From Candidatus Woesearchaeota archaeon (GTDB lineage: Archaea > Nanobdellota > Nanobdellia > Woesearchaeales > GW2011-AR4), in NCBI GenBank assembly GCA_002686855.1, contig NYYQ01000007.1:1-46088 (forward strand): a stretch of 46,088 nucleotides of DNA, read 5' to 3'. Below, piece after piece: positions 2,209 to 42,376 of the stretch (position 1 is its first letter; every line of letters begins with the position of its first letter). Below the pieces are notes generated by a model. That model searched no databases. It saw only the letters and a program-made list of their open reading frames with translations, and was not told where the DNA came from. Both the position numbers and the translations under genes were made by a program.

Positions 2209-3492
2209 ATGATTATGTCAAAAAACGAAACAAATATCAACTTTTTATTTAAGAGCATATACTCCAAATTAATAGAGTTCTTCTTAGCCAACCCTGACAA
2301 TGAGTTTTATGTGAATGAGATACTGAAAGCTGTAAAAATTTCCCCAAAAGTCTTATGCGATGGCTTAAAAGAGCTTGAAAAAGCGGGAATTTTACTAAGC
2401 GAGAAAAGAGCAAACTCCATTTATTACAGGCTTAATAAGAAAAACGAGATTGTTGGCTCAATTAAAAAGATATTAAAGCCCGCAACATACAAAGATGCTG
2501 GTGTAGACATAGATGCTGCTAACCTCGCAGTAAAAAACATTAAAAAATATGTCAGAGAAACGTATAATCCAAATGTTCTATCAAAAGTCGGCTCTTTTGG
2601 CGGTTTATACCAGTTTGACAAAGAGAATGTTTTAGTTTCCTCAACAGATGGAGTTGGAACAAAACTAAAATTAGCGTTTAAAACAAATAAGCATGATACT
2701 ATTGGCCAGGATTTAGTTAATCATTGTGTTAATGATATATTGGTTACTGGAGCAAAACCCTTATTCTTTTTAGATTACATAGCTTGTGGAAAAGTTAATC
2801 CCAAAGTCATTGAGCAAATAGTGAAAGGCCTTTCCATTGCTTGTAAGGAAAATAATTGTGCATTAGTTGGAGGAGAAATTGCTGAAATGCCCGGATTGTA
2901 CAAAGAAAAGGAATATGACCTTGCAAGTTTTATTGTTGGAAAAGTAAATAAAAACAAAATGATTGACGGTTTAAAAATTAAAAAAGATGATGCGGTAATT
3001 GGATTATCTTCTAATGGGTTGCATACTAATGGTTACTCCTTAGTTTTCAAGGTACTGTTTGACCATGCAAAACTTAATTTAAACCAAAAACCAAAAGGAC
3101 TAAATTGCGCTTTAAAGGAAGAATTAATGAAAGTCCATTTAAGCTATTTTAAGCCTGTAAATGAATTACTAACTAAATTTGAGATTAAGGCAATGGCCCA
3201 CATTACAGGAGGAGGTTTAATTGAAAATATCCCAAGAGTACTTCCTGAAAACTGCTCAGTAGAGTTATATCAGGAAAAATGGAGAATACCCCCCATATTT
3301 GAATTAATCCAGAAACATGGAAACATCCCAAAAGATGAAATGTACAGGACATTTAATATGGGGATTGGCTTTGTATTGATAGTTAATAAAAAATATTCTG
3401 AAAAAATTCTAGCTCAATTAAAAAAATATGATTTTAAATCACAGGTTATTGGGAATGTTATTAGTGGCAATAAGAAAGTGGTGATAAGTTAG
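2209..3492 (+). CDS. purM: wHTH domain fused to phosphoribosylformylglycinamidine cyclo-ligase (AIR synthetase)
   Basis: The PurM core starts near aa 92 ([41 protein letters not shown]). The first ~90 aa are a winged helix ([37 protein letters not shown]). There is no internal start codon before the PurM core. Confidence 0.85.
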
Positions 3493-7278: not shown

Positions 7279-7821
7279 ATGAGAAGCCAAGAAGATAAAG
7301 TGACAGGATTATTTTTTAATACACCTAAGCACTGGCACTTTGAAGAATTATTGAATAAATCTGGCTTAAGCAGGCCCAGGCTTGCAGTTTGGCTAAAGAA
7401 ATTCATTAAGCAAGGATTAATTAAAAGATTAAAGCCAAAAGGAAAGATGCCTTATTACATTGGAATATCTGAAAATCCTGAATTTCGGAACAGAAAAAGA
7501 TTATTCGCAATAAAAACACTGACCGAATCCGGCTTATTGGACCATTTATCCTCATTAAAGAAAGCAAAAGTTGTAATTATCTTTGGAAGCTTTTCCAGAG
7601 CAGATTGGTATGATGACAGCGATATTGATATTTTTATTTATGGTGATGAAAGCAATTTTGAATATTACAAATATAAGCAAAAATTAAAAAGAGAAATACA
7701 GATTCACAGTGCAAAAACAAAAAAAGATTTAAAAAAAATTGATAAAATGATGCCTTATATAATATCTGGAGATTTTATTAAAGGGTCTATTGAAGAATTA
7801 GGTGTTGAGGTAAATGTTTGA
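7279..7821 (+). CDS. wHTH fused to minimal nucleotidyltransferase (MNT-type)
   Basis: GSFSRADWYDDSDIDIFIYG matches the GSxxRG..SDxD pol-beta NTase motif; N-terminal wHTH (GLSRPRLAVWLKKFIKQGLIKRLKPKGKMPYY). Confidence 0.75.
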   Translation: MRSQEDKVTGLFFNTPKHWHFEELLNKSGLSRPRLAVWLKKFIKQGLIKRLKPKGKMPYYIGISENPEFRNRKRLFAIKTLTESGLLDHLSSLKKAKVVIIFGSFSRADWYDDSDIDIFIYGDESNFEYYKYKQKLKREIQIHSAKTKKDLKKIDKMMPYIISGDFIKGSIEELGVEVNV

Positions 7822-8284
7822 TTTTAAAAATTTGGATGAGGCTTACAACTCATGTGTTGCTGATGGCTTTATAAGAGAAAATCATGAGCATAATAAACAA
7901 AAGTTAAAAGATTTAATAAAAAATGCTGAAACAAACCTTAAAACAGCAAACATACTCATTAAAACATTAAAAAAAGATGATGATGAATGGCTCAATGTTT
8001 ACCTTAATCATTACGAAGCTTTAAGGTTTTATACAGAAGCATTTTTGCGTTATCATTCAGTAAAAATCAATAATCATCAATGCCTATTTGTATATTTATG
8101 TGCAAAATTCCCTGATTTAGAGCTTGACTGGAAATTTTTTGAAACCATAAGGAAGAAAAGAAATAATATTAATTATTATGGTGGCCATGTCAAGTTTGAT
8201 GAATGGAAATCAATAGATTTGCAGATAAAGTTATACATTTCTGCATTAAAGAAAGAGATTGAAACTAAGATTGGAATTTTCTAA
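7814..8284 (+). CDS. HEPN-domain protein (partner of the MNT)
   Basis: 8-nt overlap with the NTase gene; IRKKRNNINYYG resembles the R..RN...Y HEPN motif; helical composition. Confidence 0.6.
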   Translation: MFDFKNLDEAYNSCVADGFIRENHEHNKQKLKDLIKNAETNLKTANILIKTLKKDDDEWLNVYLNHYEALRFYTEAFLRYHSVKINNHQCLFVYLCAKFPDLELDWKFFETIRKKRNNINYYGGHVKFDEWKSIDLQIKLYISALKKEIETKIGIF

Positions 8285-8372
8285 TATAATTTTATCTCCT
8301 TTTAAGTGAGATGGTAACCCTTTAAGAATGAAATATTTAAATACTAGTTGATCAATACTATACTTGATTATT

Positions 8373-8702
8373 ATGGAAACAAAATCACTTTTTATTGAAT
8401 TCATGGGAGACTCGGCTATGATTAGAACATTAGACTACCTTTTAACAGAAAGGGAACTAGATTTTTCAATAACAGATATGGCAGAAAATGCAGGCATAGG
8501 AAGAGCTACCTTATATAGAATTTGGGACAATTTGATTGACAATGAAATCATAGCTCATACCAGAGATATAGGAAAAGCAAAATTATACAAATTAAACAAG
8601 GATAACATCAAAATTAAAAAACTTATGGAAATAGATGATGCATTAATTTTAGAAGAATTGAAGAAACGCTCTGAAAGTCAAAGGGCAAAAGTGATGGCAT
8701 AA
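8373..8702 (+). CDS. small wHTH DNA-binding protein
   Basis: ENAGIGRATLYRIWDNLIDNEIIAHTRDIGKAKLYKLNKDN: helix-turn-helix plus wing; ATG at 8373 preferred to TTG at 8364. Confidence 0.6.
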   Translation: METKSLFIEFMGDSAMIRTLDYLLTERELDFSITDMAENAGIGRATLYRIWDNLIDNEIIAHTRDIGKAKLYKLNKDNIKIKKLMEIDDALILEELKKRSESQRAKVMA

Positions 8703-8715
8703 TTATGTGAAAAAT

Positions 8716-10101
8716 CTATATTTCCAATTCCTTCTTCCAGAACTTACAAGCGCTTTCAGCTTTTTTAGAAGCAATACCCACATATTTCTCAGGATTACTT
8801 ATTATCTCTAATTGCTTTTTATTGAATTTTTTTAAATATGGTTGTAATGATTTTTCCTTTTTTATTATCTCTGTTAATGATTTTTTTGATGATTGAGCTT
8901 TTAATGTCAATTGCCTTACAATTTCATGAGCATCAGGATGCCCTTTTGCAGCTAACAGTATATACAACGGCTCAGCTACAATCAAGCCTTTATTCATATC
9001 AAAATTCTTCCTTAAATTTTCCTTATCAACAACTAAGTTTTTCATTGTTCTATTAAGTCTTGAAACAGATAGATAGAATGCAGTTAAAATTTCAGGAACA
9101 AATCTTAATGAAGCAGAATTAGTTAAATCTCTTTGATGCTCTGATATCTGGTCCATATACAAAGTAACAATGCGCGGCATAAAAGCTTTCCACATGCTCT
9201 TAACATTCTCAAAGTTTATGGGATTCCTCTTCTGGGGCATTGTTGAGCTTCCAACTTGTTTTGCTCCAAAAACTTCTGCAACCTCTAAAATTTCAGACCT
9301 TTGCAAATGCCTCATATCATCAGCTAAATTAGCAATAACTCCAAAACCTTCTACAATAGAATGGATATAGCTGGACATAAACTCTGCTTCTGGGATTTGT
9401 GTGGAAATAGGAGAAGCTTTTAGATTAAGCTCTGAAAGAACATCTCTCTCAAACTCAACAGGATTATTAAAGAACAGAGAGGAAGCATTATAGCTTCCCA
9501 CTGCTCCTGCTATCTTACCTCTTAAATTATTCCCTGTTTTCTTTATCTGAATTATTGACCTTCCAAACCTGGAAACATACTGTGCAAGAGCAAAACCAAA
9601 TGTTATTGGGACAGCATGCTGGCCATGTGTTCTTCCAACCTGCAAGGTATTTTTCTCCTTTAATGCCAACATTATCAATGTTTTTTCAAACTCAATTAAT
9701 TTTGGAATTAAAACATTCTCAGTAAATTTCTTATACCTTGCAGCATCTGCAGTGGCTATTATATCGTGGGATGTTGTGGTGAAATGCACAAAAGGCTTTG
9801 CTTCATCACTTACTTTCCTTTGTATGCAATTAACTAATGCCCTTATATTGTGCTTTAGTTTATCTTCTTCTTGATAAACTTCTTCAGCAGTTATTTTTTT
9901 AGTAGCTTTTTCAACCTCATCCGCAATCTTTTTGCTGCAAACGCCTTTTTTAGCCAAAGTTTTAGTTAAAGCTGCCTCAACCTTAGCCATATACTTAATC
10001 ATTGCATTCTCACTTAGATAAGGCTGCAATTTATGAAAAATGCGCTCATTCCTGCCATAATACCTAAAATCTAATGCGCTTATATTATCAAAAATATTCA
10101 T
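8716..10101 (-). CDS. purB: adenylosuccinate lyase
   Basis: SSTMPQKRNPINFENV signature, lyase-1 family layout, 461 aa. Confidence 0.9.
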   Translation of the reverse strand: MNIFDNISALDFRYYGRNERIFHKLQPYLSENAMIKYMAKVEAALTKTLAKKGVCSKKIADEVEKATKKITAEEVYQEEDKLKHNIRALVNCIQRKVSDEAKPFVHFTTTSHDIIATADAARYKKFTENVLIPKLIEFEKTLIMLALKEKNTLQVGRTHGQHAVPITFGFALAQYVSRFGRSIIQIKKTGNNLRGKIAGAVGSYNASSLFFNNPVEFERDVLSELNLKASPISTQIPEAEFMSSYIHSIVEGFGVIANLADDMRHLQRSEILEVAEVFGAKQVGSSTMPQKRNPINFENVKSMWKAFMPRIVTLYMDQISEHQRDLTNSASLRFVPEILTAFYLSVSRLNRTMKNLVVDKENLRKNFDMNKGLIVAEPLYILLAAKGHPDAHEIVRQLTLKAQSSKKSLTEIIKKEKSLQPYLKKFNKKQLEIISNPEKYVGIASKKAESACKFWKKELEI

Positions 10102-10190
10102 TTTTGGCTCAAAAGAAACATCTTTATTATCTGAATTAATTAAATTTTGAATTTCTTTTAATAAAGAACTTTCCTTGTTTAAGCTTATGA

Positions 10191-10373
10191 TTATCTTATT
10201 TTTTTCCTTGTTTTCCTTATAAGATTATTTTTCTTAAATAATTGGATTGTATTATGGACTTTAGCAGGAGAAATATCTAAATTGCCAGCAATATCCCTTA
10301 TATGCAAACTTTCCTTTGACAATAATTTCAATATTTCGATGTTTTTCTTGGTAAATATCTCTATTAACTCCAT
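10191..10373 (-). CDS. truncated wHTH ORF; probably the N-terminal part of a wHTH-PurB fusion
   Basis: HTH SLHIRDIAGNLDISPAKVHNTIQLFKKNNLI. The ORF stops just after an A7 run (10199-10205), before the wing. The -1 frame is open into the purB ATG. TATA TTTATAAATA lies about 21 nt upstream of the ATG, consistent with a leaderless mRNA. Confidence 0.6.
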   Translation of the reverse strand: MELIEIFTKKNIEILKLLSKESLHIRDIAGNLDISPAKVHNTIQLFKKNNLIRKTRKKIR

Positions 10374-10451
10374 ACTATATAGAAAACGTTCATTATTTAT
10401 AAACTTTTCTATACTTTAAACTATATATTGTTTGTTTTTAGAGAACACTAT

Positions 10452-11189
10452 TCAGACCTTAACCCTCATACAATCTTTAGCCAGAACAATCTTTCCATCA
10501 AATTCTTTGCTGCATTGTTTTTTTATATCAACCTTGTCGCATTCAGGATAGAAGTGTGTTAAAACAAGTTTCTTTACATTTGCCTTAGTCGCTATCTTGC
10601 CGCATAAAGACGGTATAAGATGGCCTTTTACCTTTTTATTATCAGGGTAGGAGCATTCCAGAACCAATAAATCAGCATTTTTCGATAATTGTATGATATC
10701 ATTAGAATAATCAGTATCTCCAGAATAAACAATTGATTTACCATCATACTCAATCCTGTATGAAACACCAATGATAGAATGCTTTACTTTTTTTGTTTTT
10801 ATTAAAATTTTATCAATTTTTGATATTGAATTATCATTCATTTCCCCAACATTAACATCGTAATTTAATTTTCCAATAGTAGCTTTTCTTATAAAATTAA
10901 AATATTTCTTAATACCTTTTGGCCCGTAAATATTTAATGGGCCTTTATATTTATTACAATGGTCTATGATAAGTATTCCTAGTAAATCATTTATATGATC
11001 TGGATGAAGATGAGTGTAAAATATATGATTAATATCCATAATCTTTGATTTTGTTTTTAAAATTTGTCTAATAATTCCAGGACCAGAATCAAAAAGTATT
11101 TTTTTATTGCCTGTTTCAACTAAATAACCAGACATATTCCTGTTTAATCTTGGCACTGCTGTCCCAGAGCCTAAAACAGTTAGTTTCAT
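10452..11189 (-). CDS. metallo-beta-lactamase fold hydrolase (RNase Z/ElaC-like)
   Basis: HTHLHPDHINDL (HxHxDH) motif, N-terminal LTVLGSGTAVP. Confidence 0.7.
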   Translation of the reverse strand: MKLTVLGSGTAVPRLNRNMSGYLVETGNKKILFDSGPGIIRQILKTKSKIMDINHIFYTHLHPDHINDLLGILIIDHCNKYKGPLNIYGPKGIKKYFNFIRKATIGKLNYDVNVGEMNDNSISKIDKILIKTKKVKHSIIGVSYRIEYDGKSIVYSGDTDYSNDIIQLSKNADLLVLECSYPDNKKVKGHLIPSLCGKIATKANVKKLVLTHFYPECDKVDIKKQCSKEFDGKIVLAKDCMRVKV

Positions 11190-13691: not shown

Positions 13692-14459
13692 CTATTTATT
13701 GTTTTTAATTATCTTATCCCTTTGCTCCCTCCTATAACTAACTAATTTCCCCTCATAACTATTATCAATATTCAATATCTCTATAGCAGCCAGAGCAGCA
13801 TTTACGCCATTATTCAAGCCAACCCATAAACCATGGTCAGAATGCTTTAATAAATTAAGGGATGCTTCTGCCCTGTCATCCTTATCAGGCAATAAAGGAC
13901 AATAAATAACCAGCTGTTTTTTCTTTTCTATAGGCTCATCAAATTTGGTAAAAAATATGTTCACACCATCATCAACAATTTGCTCAGCATGCGAATGATT
14001 TACCTTAAATTGTCTTAAGATTTCTTCTGCTTTCTTGAATGCCTTATTGTTTTTATCCCCTACTAAAACTACCTTTTCATGTTTTTTAAGCATATTAATT
14101 GCAGAATAAGCTGCTGCATCTCCTTTCTCAACTCCAACTCCTAAAACAGGAACACCAGGAGGCATCTGCATTATTGTAAGCAGAGCATCTAAGCCTTGGT
14201 AATTTCCAGAGCAGGGAACACCTATTACAGGCCTTAATGTTTTCGATGCGACAACTCCAGGCAAAGCTGCTGCAAGACCTGCACCAGATATAATAACTTT
14301 ATAATCCTGCCTTAAGATATCATCAACATCCTCTGGGCTTTTATGAGCACTGGATAACTTAAAATCATAGCTTACCTTTTCCTTGTCTAAAATCTTAAGA
14401 ATATTCTTATAGCTTTTTTCATCAGATTTTGAAGCAAACAAAACTAAAATATCTTTCAT
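13692..14459 (-). CDS. purE: PurE-like (N5-)CAIR mutase with extra degenerate C-terminal half
   Basis: SSAHKSPEDV and GAGLAAALPGVVASKTLRPVIGVPC motifs in the first ~150 aa; about 100 additional aa resembling a degraded second PurE repeat; start trimmed to ATG 14459. Confidence 0.8.
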   Translation of the reverse strand: MKDILVLFASKSDEKSYKNILKILDKEKVSYDFKLSSAHKSPEDVDDILRQDYKVIISGAGLAAALPGVVASKTLRPVIGVPCSGNYQGLDALLTIMQMPPGVPVLGVGVEKGDAAAYSAINMLKKHEKVVLVGDKNNKAFKKAEEILRQFKVNHSHAEQIVDDGVNIFFTKFDEPIEKKKQLVIYCPLLPDKDDRAEASLNLLKHSDHGLWVGLNNGVNAALAAIEILNIDNSYEGKLVSYRREQRDKIIKNNK

Positions 14460-14469
14460 AAAAACCAAC

Positions 14470-14925
14470 CTACAATATCTTATATCTTTGATAATTTTCA
14501 TTCATTAATAAGTCTTTTGCAATATTAATTGCTCTGCCTTCCTTATCAATCTCAGAATCAAAATACATTGTCCATATGATTCCCTTTTCCAATTTTTTAA
14601 TATTTTTAAAATTCAATCTTTCTTTCAACATGTTCAACAACTCATTATCCTTTTCCAAATTTTCTATTAAAATATTTATTTTATTTCCTTGTTCATTGTT
14701 CTCTAATAAAAATGAAAATTTATTTTTATTGGCATTAACCAGGACATCCACTTTACCTATTTTCTTCTCAAAGCTTTTTTTATCCCCTGAAAATCCAAAT
14801 TTATAGTAATCTTGCTTTTCCAGATTCTTTAGATGATGATAGCCCATCCTATGCAGTGTATGAAATGCTGTTATAGCTACATTATCCGGAACTTTCAAAC
14901 TGACAAATAATTCTGTTATTGGCAT
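14470..14925 (-). CDS. purS: double-length PurS-like protein
   Basis: Position in the purL-purQ cluster; VSLKVPDNVAITAFHTLHRMGY and C-terminal LLMNENYQRYKIL resemble PurS; about twice normal PurS length. Confidence 0.5.
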   Translation of the reverse strand: MPITELFVSLKVPDNVAITAFHTLHRMGYHHLKNLEKQDYYKFGFSGDKKSFEKKIGKVDVLVNANKNKFSFLLENNEQGNKINILIENLEKDNELLNMLKERLNFKNIKKLEKGIIWTMYFDSEIDKEGRAINIAKDLLMNENYQRYKIL

Positions 14926-21400: not shown

Positions 21401-21919
21401 ATGGAAAGAGAAGCTATTACATTACCAAAATTAACTATAGATCAATTAGTAGAATTAGGAGCCGACCATGATAGTATGGTTACTCCCACTAGTAGTATCT
21501 ATGAAATTGATCCACTAGCAACACAACTAGGAACTAGAATTAAGGAAAAACTTAGTGATGGAACAATACAAGACAGAAAAAGACTCCTAAGAGTACTTCC
21601 AAGAATAGCTAATGAAGTGATTCAAAATGCAATTGAACATGGTAATGAGTTAGATCCTTCAAAACAAATTCATGCTTATTTTCTTTGGCAAGAGCATGGT
21701 TCTGGTAATGCATTGATGTATATTGCTGTACAAGATGAAGGCAAAGGCTTTGATGTAAATAGATATAGACTAAAAAATCCTAAACATGGTGGAGAAGCGC
21801 TGCCTTGGGCAAGAGAAATGTTTGATCATATTTATAATTTTGGAGATCCTGCAGTTTACATGGCTCAAGTCATAAGAAGAGATGGTGCAAAACCAATTGT
21901 AGTGGAAAAAGGTAGCTAA
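21401..21919 (+). CDS. stand-alone GHKL/HATPase_c-like protein (anti-sigma-factor-kinase-like)
   Basis: N-box EVIQNAIEHGN and G1-like VQDEGKGFD; TATA TTTATAAAGG about 25 nt before ATG 21401. Confidence 0.5.
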   Translation: MEREAITLPKLTIDQLVELGADHDSMVTPTSSIYEIDPLATQLGTRIKEKLSDGTIQDRKRLLRVLPRIANEVIQNAIEHGNELDPSKQIHAYFLWQEHGSGNALMYIAVQDEGKGFDVNRYRLKNPKHGGEALPWAREMFDHIYNFGDPAVYMAQVIRRDGAKPIVVEKGS

Positions 21920-23108
21920 ATAACCTCCCCAACCAGATAAATAGAGCCAGCAACAACAACTAAATCTCTTTTCCCTGCATTTTTTTTTGCATATTCTAAA
22001 GCTTTTTTTGAATTTTTAATAATAATTGAATTTTTAAAATATTTTTTTATATCTTTTATTTTGGCTGCTCTTTCATTATTTGCTTCTGTCAATATAATTT
22101 TATCCGCTTTTATTATCTTTGATATAGCTTTAACATCTTTATCTTTAGAAAAACCCAAAACCGCAATTAACTTATTGTATCTTAGATTTTTTAATTCATG
22201 AAATAAACCCCTAAATCCAGCTGGATTATGGGCAACATCAATCAACACATTCTTCCTCAATTCAAACCTTCCAGGCCATTTTACATTCTTTAATCCATTT
22301 TTTATATCCTTTTTATTAATTTTAATTCTTTTATTTTCATTTAGAATTTCCAATGCTTTTATTGCAATTGCTGCATTTATTAATTGAAAATTTCCTTTCA
22401 GGCCTGATTTTATATTTTCATCATTGTTTTTTTCATTTATTGATGTTTTTTCATTTTTTAATGGCGCCATTATTCTTGAATTTTTTTTAATGGCTATTTT
22501 TTTATTGTTTTCAAAGCAACACCTTTTGCTCCTGTTACAACCGGAACATTATTTTTTATTATTCCTGCTTTCTCATAGGCAATCTTTCTTAAACTATTGC
22601 CTAAAAACTTCTTATGCTCATGCGCAACATTGGTTATGATTGAAATCAACGGTCTAATAACATTAGTCGAGTCCAGTCTTCCACCCATTCCCGTCTCCAA
22701 AACAACAAAATCAACCTTTTTATCATAAAAATAAAGAAACATCATAGAGGTTGTTATCTCAAAAAAACTTTGGTTTGTAGCATGTTTTTTAACTTTAAGA
22801 TAATATTCAACTATCTCTTTGTCAGTAATTAATTTATCATTTATCCTGATCCTTTCATTGAATTTCTTTAAATGGGGGCTTGTATACATCCCAACATTAT
22901 ATCCAGCCTCTTGCAGTATAGAAGAGATCATAGCGCAAACAGAACCCTTTCCATTAGTCCCAGCAACATGAATGTACTTTAGCTTTTTTTCTGGATTGCC
23001 TAATTTCTTAAGAAGTAACTTCATATTTTTTAATCCTAATTTAAACTTCCATTCAGGCATACCATAAAGTTCTTCCAACACTTTGTTATAGTTCATAAGG
23101 AAAAGCAA
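21916..23108 (-). pseudogene. folC: folylpolyglutamate/dihydrofolate synthase interrupted by a frameshift at an A7 run
   Basis: N-part 22494..23108 (HVAGTNGKGSV P-loop), C-part 21916..22470 (NFQLINAAIAIKALEIL, PGRFE). One extra A in the run at 22497-22503 gives a continuous ...TIKKIAIKKNSRIMAPLK... Confidence 0.75.
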
Positions 23109-39049: not shown

Positions 39050-39117
39050 AGCCAATAAAAAATAATTATTTTTGACAATTAAAATCTTTAAATTGTAAAT
39101 AAAATTAATGATTGAAA

Positions 39118-39693
39118 ATGGCAAAGAAAGAAGCAGCACCAAAAACTGTACTAGAAAGAATTTATAATGTTCCTTTAAGAAGAGAGTACCTTAAGGCTCC
39201 TAACTGGAAAAGAACTCCTAAAGCAGTCAAAGCTCTAAGGCAGTTTATCTCTAAACATATGAAATCAGATAATGTTATTATTGGAAGATATGCTAATCTG
39301 CATCTTTGGAAGCACGGAATAAAAAATCCCCCCCATCACATTAAAGTTAATGCAGTTAAAGACGAGAAGGGAAAGGTTACTGCAGAGCTTGTTGACCTTT
39401 CTGGAAAAGCAAAGAGAGAGCTGGAAAAGCAAAAAGAAGTTGATAAGAAAAAAGAAGAGATAGAAAAGCAGAAAGAGGCAGAAGAAAAAGCTAAAAAAGA
39501 AGCAGAGAAAAAGAAATCTGAAGAAGAAAAGAAAGCAGAAGAAGCAAAAAAAGAGAAAGAAGGGAAAGCTAAAGAAATACAAAAAGAAGAAATCAAAGAA
39601 TTGAAAAAAGAACAGCCAAAACTACAGCCACTAAAACAAGCACCGCAACCAAAACAAGTTCAAAGACAGCCAACTGCTCCCAAGAGTCAGTGA
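39118..39693 (+). CDS. rpl31e: 50S ribosomal protein eL31 with long K/E-rich C-terminal extension
   Basis: ERIYNVPLRREY..KRTPKAVKALRQFISKHMK..NLHLWKHGIKNPP core; about 100 extra residues. Confidence 0.85.
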   Translation: MAKKEAAPKTVLERIYNVPLRREYLKAPNWKRTPKAVKALRQFISKHMKSDNVIIGRYANLHLWKHGIKNPPHHIKVNAVKDEKGKVTAELVDLSGKAKRELEKQKEVDKKKEEIEKQKEAEEKAKKEAEKKKSEEEKKAEEAKKEKEGKAKEIQKEEIKELKKEQPKLQPLKQAPQPKQVQRQPTAPKSQ

Positions 39694-41170: not shown

Positions 41171-41385
41171 TTGAAATCACAATTTTACTAAATGAAACGA
41201 TAGTAAATGGTTTTAGTTTTTAAACGAAAATCATAATTTAATTGTTGAATACGGCTGACGATTTTAAATGTAAAAAATAATTTAAAAATTTTTAGGGAGA
41301 AGTCATATAAATACCTTACGCACGAATGTCCAGTGGACGAAACATTATTAAAGTCACTATTAATCTTAAAAAAGGAGGTGGGCTA

Positions 41386-41617
41386 ATGAATAAAAATTTA
41401 TTACCTTTTGAAACAGTTAAAAGAAAAATCCTTGTAAAAAAAGAAGCAGAAACTGATGATAAATTAGGATGCAGACCAAAAGAAAGAAAAACAGAAGAGA
41501 TAATTAATTATGGTGTTGTTAATATAAACAAATGCCAAGGTCCTACTAGTCATCAGATAAGCGATTATGTTCAAAAAATTCTTGGAATAACAAAAAGTGG
41601 GCATTCGGGGACTCTAG
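41386..41617 (+). CDS. cbf5: tRNA/rRNA pseudouridine synthase Cbf5, exon 1
   Basis: GGAGGTG SD before ATG 41386; ...CQGPTSHQISDYVQKILGITKSGHSGTL then the first nt of the Asp codon. Confidence 0.8.
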
Positions 41618-41633
41618 AGTAAAAATCAGAGAA
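41618..41633 (+). other. candidate 16-nt bulge-helix-bulge intron in cbf5 mRNA
   Basis: Outer helix 41607-11/41635-39, central 4-bp helix 41612-15/41628-31, 3-nt bulges 41616-18 and 41632-34; cleavage after the second bulge nt restores GAT (Asp) and the frame. Confidence 0.6.
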
Positions 41634-42376
41634 ATCCCCATGTCCATGGTGTTTTGCCAACAGCATTAGGCCGTGCAACAAGAATTGTGCAAACTTTGCT
41701 TACTTCTGGAAAAGAATATGTTGGAATTATGCACTTGCATAAAGATATTGATGAAAAAAAGCTAAAAGAAACAATAAAAAAGCATTTTGTAGGAAAGATA
41801 AAACAATTACCCCCCATAAAAAGCGCAGTAAGAAGACTATTAAGAACAAGAGAAATTTATTATTTTGATATTCTTGAAAAAGAAGGACAGGATGTTTTGT
41901 TTGTTGTTGGATGCCAAGCGGGAACTTACATAAGAAAATTAATTCATGATTTAGGACAGAAATTAAAAGTTGGAGCGCATATGCAGGAGCTTAGAAGAAC
42001 AAAAGCAGGACCATTCAACGAAGAAACAATTTTTTCATTGCAGGATTTAACTGATGCATTTTATTATTATAAAAAAGAATCAAATGACAAATTCTTAAGA
42101 AAAATTATACAGCCAGTAGAAAATGCTATAACACATTTACCCAAAATATGGGTTTTTGATAATGCTATTGATACAATTTGCCATGGAGCTTCTTTAAATA
42201 TTCCAGGAATTTCAAAATTAAATGATAAAATAGAGCCAGAGCAAACAGTTGCAATCATGACACTAAAAGATGAATTAATAGCATTAGGAACCTCAAAACT
42301 GAATTCTGAGAAAATATTAAAACAGGAAAAAGGCTTAGCAGTCAAAACAGATAAGGTTTTTATGGAGATAAATTAA
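41634..42376 (+). CDS. cbf5: Cbf5, exon 2 (TruB core and PUA domain)
   Basis: (D)PHVHGVLPTALGRATRIVQTLLTSGKEYVGIMHLH..., GTYIRKLIHDLG, ELRRTKAGPF; PUA-like C-terminus. Confidence 0.8.

Follow-up and report, generated by a model that had tools for sequence, protein, structure and literature searches.

The window, by which we mean the whole 46,088-nt stretch of Woesearchaeota DNA that was analysed, contains purC, purE, purS, purQ, purL and purM as well as purB, the only purB seen in it. In this assembly the purB locus, on the minus strand, is broken into two open reading frames. By direct reading of the sequence, a winged helix-turn-helix (wHTH) ORF of 60 aa runs from 10373 to 10191 and ends in KKIR*, its stop codon lying just 3′ of an A7 run at 10199-10205, and a purB of 461 aa runs from 10101 to 8716. 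This agrees with the preliminary description of the locus, in which the wHTH ORF stops after the A7 run and the other frame is open into purB: when one A is added to the run, a 552-aa ORF results that is continuous through the purB ATG at 10101. Given how often stops occur in the window as a whole, an open stretch of 39 codons would arise by chance with a probability of ~0.07 and is by itself weak evidence; it is homology that carries the case. The locus comprises the following features:

8716..10373, minus strand: probable wHTH-PurB fusion gene, 552 aa with one T restored; as assembled, a 60-aa ORF and a 461-aa purB
10218..10219, minus strand: deletion of 1 nt, private to this assembly; CTTAT-AAGG in the window, CTT ATT AAG G (Ile52-Lys53) in other assemblies
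10199..10205, minus strand: A7 run at native length, in frame as GAA AAA AAT (Glu57-Lys58-Asn59) in the intact gene

Among the matches listed, more than 100 relatives from Woesearchaeota and Nanoarchaeota, 70-82% identical at ~100% coverage, have a contiguous gene of ~552 aa that is annotated as adenylosuccinate lyase in its source. Nearly all of the 119 other matches listed are 549-559 aa long, the exceptions being two proteins of 577 aa and three that are truncated or partial; none of the 119 is a split gene, and among the matches listed the length of 461 aa was found only for the window's own protein. A comparison of the orthologous locus for a contiguous fusion had been proposed in the preliminary description, and nearly all relatives listed bear the fusion out.

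The same population was reached through the neighbouring MBL protein, an exact-match search for which returned 18 contigs (ENA Tara scaffolds, two MEGAHIT assemblies, two Logan runs and JGI), and we read the gene in six of them (L021-L026). All three of the examined contigs that span the whole downstream gene encode 552 aa, and the other three end within an unbroken 391-aa ORF. Over 281 nt the six are 100% identical to the window, the missing T being the sole exception. In a blastn alignment spanning 8738 nt, the window and L021 differ by this T alone, and the T-corrected translation has 0 differences from the L021 protein in 552 residues. The fusion is thus contiguous, at the level of sequence, in the same population as well as in relatives. 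Some of the other assemblies share overlapping Tara Oceans sequencing runs, and they represent independent assemblies, not all of them independent samples. The same-population 552-aa protein was absent from the 120 matches listed and was reached only through the neighbour look-up; we attribute this absence to candidate pre-selection in the protein search. Among the contigs on record, an exact search for the 461-aa PurB found none that encodes it. Its single source is the NCBI entry MAE42232.1, in which PGAP took Met92 as the purB start, giving the 461-aa annotation.

Alignments with relatives and with the same-population contigs place the gap 13-14 nt 5′ of the A7 run, and the run has its native length in the other assemblies, which removes it as the site of the frame change that it had been taken for. 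The base lost is one T of a TT dinucleotide between window positions 10219 and 10218: the window has the single-T form CTTATAAGG where the intact form is CTTATTAAGG, and the DNA of relatives reads through the lesion site as ATH AAR GAR. Loss of this T puts codons 53-60 out of frame, and the last eight residues of the 60-aa ORF are the out-of-frame translation of conserved codons. Correcting A7 to A8 also gave full-length matches, yet this correction was dropped because the DNA alignments set the gap elsewhere.

The position of the A7 run just before the stop, where a -1 shift reopens the frame, had suggested a programmed -1 shift of the ribosome or slippage in transcription, by which the wHTH would be made both as a short protein and in fusion with PurB. 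Poly-A frameshift and slippage sites are known, for example in dnaX and in the transposases of IS elements, and there, as here, a homopolymer adjoins the frame change. Unlike at those sites, the frame change here lies off the homopolymer and probably does not exist in the organism's actual genome. Intact genes from the population read this A7 run in frame, with an identical run in L021-L026, and so do those of the relatives L004 and L007/L008; no frame change occurs in the other assemblies, and the 119 other matches listed include no split gene. Furthermore, the product of slippage, like the A8 reading, would carry RKTRK at residues 53-57 in place of the conserved KENKE of the intact protein, and would lose Glu54, which is invariant in the relatives compared. 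We consider the chance that slippage operates at this locus to be close to nil.

The N-terminal part of the protein comprises the following:

10123..10373, minus strand: ArsR/SmtB-like winged helix domain, residues 1-84; the probably artefactual stop falls at the start of the wing
10102..10122, minus strand: linker, residues 85-91, with pLDDT 52-61 and a length that varies among relatives; Met92 follows

The PurB part matches Lyase_1 (PF00206, 137 bits) and PF08328 (62.9 bits), with PF10397 slightly below its cutoff (31.9 versus 32.7 bits), and both Lyase_1 and ASL_C are full-length. The purine-gene context is consistent with the predicted activity of PurB on SAICAR and adenylosuccinate. The winged helix domain comprises helices a1 (9-20) and a2 (25-32), a recognition helix (36-48), the wing strands (52-57/60-65) and a C-terminal helix (70-84). 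Its AF2 model (pLDDT 88.6) includes the beta-hairpin wing and the C-terminal helix, and Foldseek matched it to CadC, CzrA, HlyU, NolR and SmtB at TM 0.72-0.78. A profile search with the wHTH matched AdcR/ZitR, SmtB, CzrA and AF_1382. The match of the corrected N-terminus to PF25212 (HVO_A0114) is marginal, at 27.9 bits versus a cutoff of 27.6; the truncated or A8 version scores 25.2 bits, under the cutoff, and 42/45 family members match PF25212, with a best E of 7.7e-10.

In the NCBI record the locus stands as two genes, a stand-alone small HTH regulator and a purB starting at 10101. The PGAP call of a 461-aa purB supports such an arrangement, as does the existence of stand-alone members of this wHTH family. 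Every family member, however, has the wing and the C-terminal helix, both of which the 60-aa ORF lacks, and the last eight residues of this ORF are conserved codons read out of frame. At position 92 the relatives have M, I or L, the last two in many of them, which leaves no conserved start codon, and the two parts are fused in the other same-population assemblies and in nearly all relatives listed. We regard the separation into two genes as having almost no likelihood.

It could also be that the single-T form exists in the natural population as a rare allele, where the gene would be starting to decay into a pseudogene or to split, and that this metagenome-assembled genome captured it; indels do accumulate in AT-rich genomes. 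This allele is absent from every same-population contig covering the site, and outside the lesion the gene does not differ from the intact one. Moreover, folC, which lies on this contig too, is split by another private 1-nt deletion (A8 to A7), likewise absent elsewhere; once corrected, the FolC protein matches P0353 of other assemblies at 100% identity, and in a folC scan of metagenome contigs the sole match was a distant locus (38% identity). Two private 1-nt deletions on one contig favour assembly error over two linked rare alleles, and we judge a rare allele to be very improbable. Recent decay of the gene, which the preliminary description had also considered, is not supported: the lesion is private to this assembly, and the codons downstream of it are identical to those of the intact gene.

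Because the gene is intact in the other same-population assemblies and in relatives, and because the T-restored protein is identical to theirs in the population, we conclude with a probability of roughly 0.93 that the locus is one 552-aa wHTH-PurB gene and that the frameshift is a consensus or assembly error of this assembly, not biology. The earlier suggestion of a homopolymer error hiding a wHTH-PurB fusion therefore holds as to the fusion and the assembly error, but the base lost is a T of TT and not an A of the A7 run. The case is a caution in that a one-base assembly error would hide an N-terminal domain in an NCBI record while a slippery-looking run beside the stop serves as a red herring. 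Compared among relatives, purifying selection acts on the wHTH as it does on the enzyme (dN 0.09-0.12 for the wHTH versus 0.09-0.15 for PurB; dS saturated).

A second purine enzyme in the window carries a homologous domain:

2209..3492, plus strand: wHTH-PurM (AIR synthase) fusion, a paralogous architecture with a wHTH of ~90 aa

As had been proposed, homology between the two wHTH domains extends through the wing, and on to the following helix, in sequence comparison (BLASTP E 4e-4); hhalign of the PurM-wHTH against the PurB-wHTH family profile gave a probability of 93.5% (E 2.3e-7). L013 matches residues 1-425 of the PurM fusion at 73%. Among the profile matches, the architecture seen most often is a wHTH-nucleotidyltransferase (MNT-like) of ~175-188 aa, found in DPANN and other archaea, which has the same N-terminal wHTH family joined to a minimal nucleotidyltransferase instead of PurB. 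Several short database proteins (P0122, P0123 and P0129) in which unrelated sequence follows this wHTH resemble chimeric or frameshifted contigs and were excluded as fusions.

The domain has the fold and topology of the ArsR/SmtB repressors (CzrA, CadC, SmtB, HlyU and NolR; PF25212), including the recognition helix, wing and C-terminal helix, but it forms the N-terminal part of a metabolic enzyme and is not a free dimeric repressor, and its DNA binding is predicted. Fusions of an enzyme with a repressor include E. coli BirA (wHTH and biotin ligase), PutA, NadR and archaeal RbkR (wHTH and riboflavin kinase). In these, too, the DNA-binding domain is N-terminal on a pathway enzyme, whose substrate or product could co-regulate; PurB differs in being an unrelated enzyme, a lyase of the fumarase/aspartase superfamily, and in being a putative regulator. 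Bacillus subtilis PurR, the repressor of the purine regulon, consists of a wHTH and a phosphoribosyltransferase-like domain that is a catalytically inactive sensor. It resembles the present protein in joining a winged helix to a purine-pathway enzyme fold, whereas PurB here keeps full-length Lyase_1 and ASL_C.

Upstream of the wHTH ATG we found the following elements:

10394..10403, minus strand: TATA box TTTATAAATA, 20 nt 5′ of the ATG with leaderless-type spacing; invariant in all relatives compared
10405..10413, minus strand: distal inverted-repeat arm, kept in L001 and L004, not in L007 and L009 (five lineages compared)
10375..10390, minus strand: conserved block AACGTTTTCTATATAG in the TATA-to-ATG interval, containing the proximal inverted-repeat arm
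10424..10439, minus strand: conserved upstream block AAAAACAAACAATATA, ~20 nt 5′ of the TATA box; candidate regulator-binding site

The leaderless-type TATA box expected ~21 nt from the ATG was confirmed, with TTTATAAATA at 10403..10394 and 20 nt between. The inverted repeat described around it is real and longer than had been claimed, its arms TATAGAAAA and TTTTCTATA (10378-10386 / 10405-10413) being 9 nt each and 100% complementary; the distal arm is not kept in L007 and L009. The AACGTTTTCTATATAG block is kept in five lineages with saturated synonymous sites, and a second copy was not found in the window; AAAAACAAACAATATA is present in the window, where this is its sole exact copy, and in L001, L004, L007 and L009. 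A search of the window upstream of purM, purC, purS/E, purL and purF gave no convincing second copy of the purB promoter blocks, and purM promoters have a different palindrome. No operator common to purB and purM or other pur promoters was found in the window, and no regulon can be inferred. Scanning the window for Rfam families and tRNAs gave no hits.

From this arrangement, transcription from the conserved TATA promoter would yield a leaderless-type mRNA for wHTH-PurB. The wHTH may bind DNA, the conserved blocks upstream of its own gene being plausible sites, and such binding would make the tetrameric PurB a metabolite-linked autoregulator. Two results speak against this function: the pur promoters of the window yielded no common operator, and some lineages do not keep the inverted repeat. 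More broadly, it is conceivable, although we hold it to be doubtful, that the wHTH modules on PurB and PurM make these enzymes metabolite-sensing transcription factors for purine biosynthesis that bind conserved blocks of their own promoters in this marine Woesearchaeota/Nanoarchaeota clade. We know of no described purine regulator in archaea, and a literature search on wHTH-PurB or Woesearchaeota purine regulation returned nothing relevant; if the proposal were true, enzymes acting as purine transcription factors would represent a way of controlling purine synthesis not yet described in archaea. Throughout a large clade of marine DPANN archaea, a DNA-binding-type domain is stably fused to both PurB and PurM, two enzymes of the purine pathway, and these fusions are concrete, testable candidates for regulation of the archaeal purine pathway; the biology is real but modest.

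Elsewhere in the window, cbf5 is split by a 16-nt insertion at 41618-41633. A third assembly error was ruled out in this case, as the insertion is identical in 20 same-population contigs; it is real. The insertion lies within the catalytic Asp codon, at the position of crenarchaeal cbf5 introns, and removing 41618-41633 restores the frame and the catalytic motif GHSGTLDPHVHGVLP of a 344-aa Cbf5, with ...GGGACTCTAG|ATCCCCATGTCC... as the predicted junction. The RNA can be folded with an outer helix GGGGA/UCCCC (plus 8 further pairs), a 3′ bulge AAA, a 4-bp helix CUCU/AGAG, a possible 5′ bulge AGA and an inner helix of only ~1-2 bp. This motif resembles a relaxed bulge-helix-bulge (BHB) of the hBH/BHL type, as described in PMC5829648. 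A literature search for cbf5 introns together with DPANN found nothing. With this insertion, a BHB intron in a pre-mRNA would occur outside Crenarchaeota, at the crenarchaeal nucleotide position, and this by-product may matter more than the purB finding.

Direct reading of the minus strand from the ATG at 10373 (...AAT AAT CTT ATA AGG AAA ACA AGG AAA AAA ATA AGA TAA) confirmed a 60-aa winged-helix (wHTH) ORF ending in KKIR* at 10191, as well as the run of seven adenines (A7 run, 10199-10205) at which a frame change into purB had been proposed. Adding one A to this run (the A8 reading) indeed opens an ORF of 552 aa extending to 8716, with the purB ATG (10101) inside it. Its C-terminal 460 residues match the Pfam families Lyase_1, ASL_C and ADSL_C, and the first 60 residues give weak matches to the wHTH families HVO_A0114, HTH_5 and HTH_24. 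The window (G+C 32%; NCBI source name Candidatus Woesearchaeota archaeon) also contains purM, purC, purE, purS, purQ, purL and a purF-like gene. PurS is of double length (151 aa, 14470-14925, -), and the longest purE ORF (269 aa, 13692-14501, -) overlaps purS; the purE call of other assemblies has 255 aa.

When the A8-corrected 552-aa protein was searched against 5.8 billion proteins, nearly all of the 119 other matches listed, originating from Woesearchaeota/Nanoarchaeota MAGs, JGI, ENA and Tara, proved to be 549-559 aa long, with ~100% query coverage and 70-82% identity. The exceptions are two proteins of 577 aa and three that are truncated or partial; beside these, the only short protein among the matches listed is the window's own (P0001, 461 aa, MAE42232.1). 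Since the listed matches are almost uniformly full-length, a contiguous wHTH-PurB fusion is the rule in this clade. The fusion behind the anomaly is real and conserved. In the databases such sequences go under the plain labels adenylosuccinate lyase or lyase family protein, and a literature search found no papers on wHTH-PurB or wHTH-PurM.

The DNA of the loci of seven relatives was fetched and aligned with the window (alignments A1 and A2). The frame change does not lie at the A7 run, as the preliminary description had it; the single-base gap is elsewhere. The relatives read AAT TTA ATH AAR GAA AAY AAR GAA AAA AAY AAG ATA at the site (L-I-K-E-N-K-E-K-N-K-I), and the window reads CTT AT- AAG GAA AAC AAG GAA AAA AAT AAG. 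The identical A7 run is present in the relatives' loci L004 and L007/L008, in frame as GAA AAA AAY. The A8 reading, LIRKTRKKNK, loses Glu54, a residue invariant among relatives (protein alignments A3 and A4). Closing the gap further upstream instead yields LIKENKEKNK, as in the database proteins P0002, P0007 and P0014. Programmed slippage at the run, one of the explanations first offered, is refuted, and we give it practically no weight: the frame change is not located at the run, the run is in frame within intact genes, and no split relative occurs among the matches listed. The same data refute a reading as two separate genes, wHTH and purB, which is just as improbable.

The neighbouring metallo-beta-lactamase-fold protein (10452..11189) served as an exact query for contigs of the same population, and 18 contigs of other assemblies carry it (Tara scaffolds, ERZ2773072; MEGAHIT, ERZ908509 and ERZ908553; Logan, ERR599037 and ERR599167; JGI, 3300020361). 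Three of the six contigs shown span the whole gene downstream, which is called at 552 aa in each, and the other three end within the unbroken ORF. Over 281 nt the window and these six contigs are 100% identical but for one column (alignment A5), which reads CTT ATT AAG in 6/6 contigs versus CTT AT- AAG in the window; the A7 run is the same in all seven sequences. By blastn, this gap is the sole difference over 8738 nt between the window and L021, a same-population contig with the intact gene. With a T inserted between window positions 10219 and 10218, the protein matches that of L021 with 0 differences, and the A8 version departs from the L021 protein at residues 53-57. The 461-aa product is encoded by no contig on record (exact look-up). 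Since the other assemblies are intact, the frameshift is private to this one assembly. The sequencing-error option thus stands as regards the fusion and the private error, but not as regards an A lost from the A7 run, since A5 shows a missing T instead. We put the probability at roughly 0.93 that this is a single wHTH-PurB gene, which would have been broken in silico by the loss of one T; neither the frameshift nor the slippage first flagged is a genuine feature.

That the missing T is a genuine rare allele is unlikely, given that no other assembly has it and that a second private deletion occurs in folC (folylpolyglutamate synthase), which is split in the window:
23108..22494, minus strand: first part of folC, with Mur_ligase_M
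22470..21916, minus strand: second part of folC, with Mur_ligase_C
The first part stops just past another run of seven adenines (22497-22503). Over 393 aa, the A8-corrected FolC shows 100% identity to P0353 (ENA, Logan assemblies), and same-population contigs from other assemblies have eight adenines at this site (the folC alignment, A7). Over 11.8 kb, the window differs from the fetched contig L019 by one mismatch and the folC gap. The folC split adds another assembly error to this contig, and two private single-base deletions within ~17 kb (purB and folC) point to consensus errors in this MAG. We take the MAE-prefixed proteins to come from Tara Oceans MAGs made by assembly merging.

Searching 1.84 billion representative proteins with a profile of residues 1-91 gave 112 matches. 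Among them are further wHTH-PurB fusions (P0124, P0126, P0128, P0139), many ~175-188 aa proteins with a minimal nucleotidyltransferase at the C-terminus, wHTH proteins of 80-110 aa that stand alone, and P0135, in which the partner is NAD(P)H-hydrate dehydratase. With the T restored, the domain scores 27.9 bits against PF25212 (HVO_A0114; gathering score 27.6), which is matched by 42/45 family members. The family alignment yielded an AF2 model (pLDDT 88.6) with the following elements:
residues 9-20: a1
residues 25-32: a2
residues 36-48: recognition helix
residues 52-57 and 60-65: wing strands
residues 70-84: helix, with a low-confidence linker after it
The artefactual stop cuts the modelled domain exactly at the wing start. 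Foldseek against the PDB retrieved the ArsR/SmtB-family repressors CadC, CzrA, HlyU, NolR and SmtB (TM 0.72-0.78), in agreement with a PDB sequence profile search; the PurB N-terminal domain is an ArsR/SmtB-like, HVO_A0114-type wHTH. Between lineages with saturated synonymous sites, dN is 0.09-0.12 in the wHTH versus 0.09-0.15 in PurB, and this equality indicates that the wHTH is maintained by selection. The architecture resembles enzyme-repressor fusions such as BirA, PutA, NadR and RbkR of archaea, and shares its theme with B. subtilis PurR.

As an N-terminal module the HVO_A0114-type wHTH is mobile (P0133, P0145-P0180, P0135), its commonest partner being the minimal nucleotidyltransferase (~180 aa). 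P0122, P0123 and P0129, in which the first 60-85 residues of a PurB-type wHTH are followed by unrelated sequence (RecR_C, PEP-utilizers), were rejected as genuine fusions and are likely chimeric or frameshifted metagenome contigs. In the window (7279-8284, +), a gene for a wHTH-nucleotidyltransferase of 180 aa overlaps with the first part of a 156-aa ORF that has no Pfam match, and the two could be an MNT/HEPN-like pair; the wHTH of this nucleotidyltransferase gives a weak match to the PurB-wHTH family (hhalign 20.7%). A 112-aa HTH protein (8364-8702, +) is convergent with purB.

The TATA box first described, TTTATAAATA (10403..10394), lies 20 nt upstream of the ATG of the fusion gene (10373), a leaderless-type spacing; it is invariant across the five lineages compared. 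The inverted repeat said to bracket it is real, with arms of 9 nt (TATAGAAAA/TTTTCTATA), the distal one not conserved in the relatives' loci L007 or L009. Two non-coding blocks flanking the box are kept despite saturated synonymous divergence:
10375-10390, minus strand: conserved block AACGTTTTCTATATAG
10424-10439, minus strand: conserved block AAAAACAAACAATATA
These are candidate regulator sites, and autoregulation by wHTH-PurB can reasonably be inferred. No copies of either block were found upstream of other pur genes within the window.

The homology drawn earlier between the wHTHs of PurB and PurM was borne out by the family profile (hhalign probability 93.5%, E 2.3e-7), the match spanning helix 2, the recognition helix, the wing and the following helix. 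The PurM fusion (AIR synthase; 2209..3492, +) has an N-terminal wHTH of ~90 aa, and bacterial and Methanosarcinales PurM begin to match at residue 88-93. The fusion is kept in a related Nanoarchaeota MAG (L013, 1501-2775; 73% identity over residues 1-425). The palindrome at the purM promoters is a different one: GGAAATCGCGATTTCC (L013) and GAAATTTC (window).

Unlike the purB and folC lesions, an insertion that splits cbf5 is real, because the same split ORFs and an identical junction occur in other same-population contigs. The gene lies in two pieces:
41326..41622, plus strand: first piece, DKCLD domain, ending GHSGTLE*
41654..42376, plus strand: second piece, TruB_N, TruB_C_2 and PUA
Without the 16 nt at 41618-41633 (AGTAAAAATCAGAGAA), which interrupt the codon for the catalytic Asp (G|AT), the gene again reads GHSGTLDPHVHGVLP and encodes a 344-aa Cbf5. 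An exact look-up of the neighbouring FtsZ retrieved 20 same-population contigs; the same 98-aa and 240-aa ORFs are present in 8/8 contigs shown (SPAdes, MEGAHIT, JGI and Tara scaffolds), with 100% identity at the junction among these eight (alignment A6), and both pieces are on record from 12-17 contigs. Cbf5 is contiguous (313-358 aa, mostly ~329 aa; 71-82% identity) in all 120 relatives among the matches listed, one of which, L035, reads GGC ACC TTA GAT CCT CAT at the site. The predicted fold around the insertion (MFE -23.7 kcal/mol, z -3.3) has the following elements:
exon-exon helix GUGGGCAU/AUGUCCAU plus GGGGA/UCCCC
3-nt bulge AAA, 41632-41634
4-bp helix CUCU/AGAG
possible 5' bulge AGA, 41616-41618
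weak inner helix
As modelled, this is a relaxed bulge-helix-bulge (BHB) motif, a class of substrates for splicing endonucleases of the (alpha-beta)2 and epsilon2 types (PMC5829648). On the predicted fold, symmetric cleavage past the second (or third) bulge nucleotide would give exactly G|AT, the position of the introns in crenarchaeal cbf5 pre-mRNA (Yokobori et al., PMC2738675). The cbf5 intron has been described solely in Desulfurococcales and Sulfolobales, Nanoarchaeum cbf5 being intron-less (PMC2738675), and our literature search found no report of one in DPANN. In this Woesearchaeote, the insertion probably represents a BHB intron of the cbf5 mRNA.

Elsewhere in the window, ribosomal protein L31e (39112-39693, +) carries a Lys/Glu-rich tail of ~110 aa.
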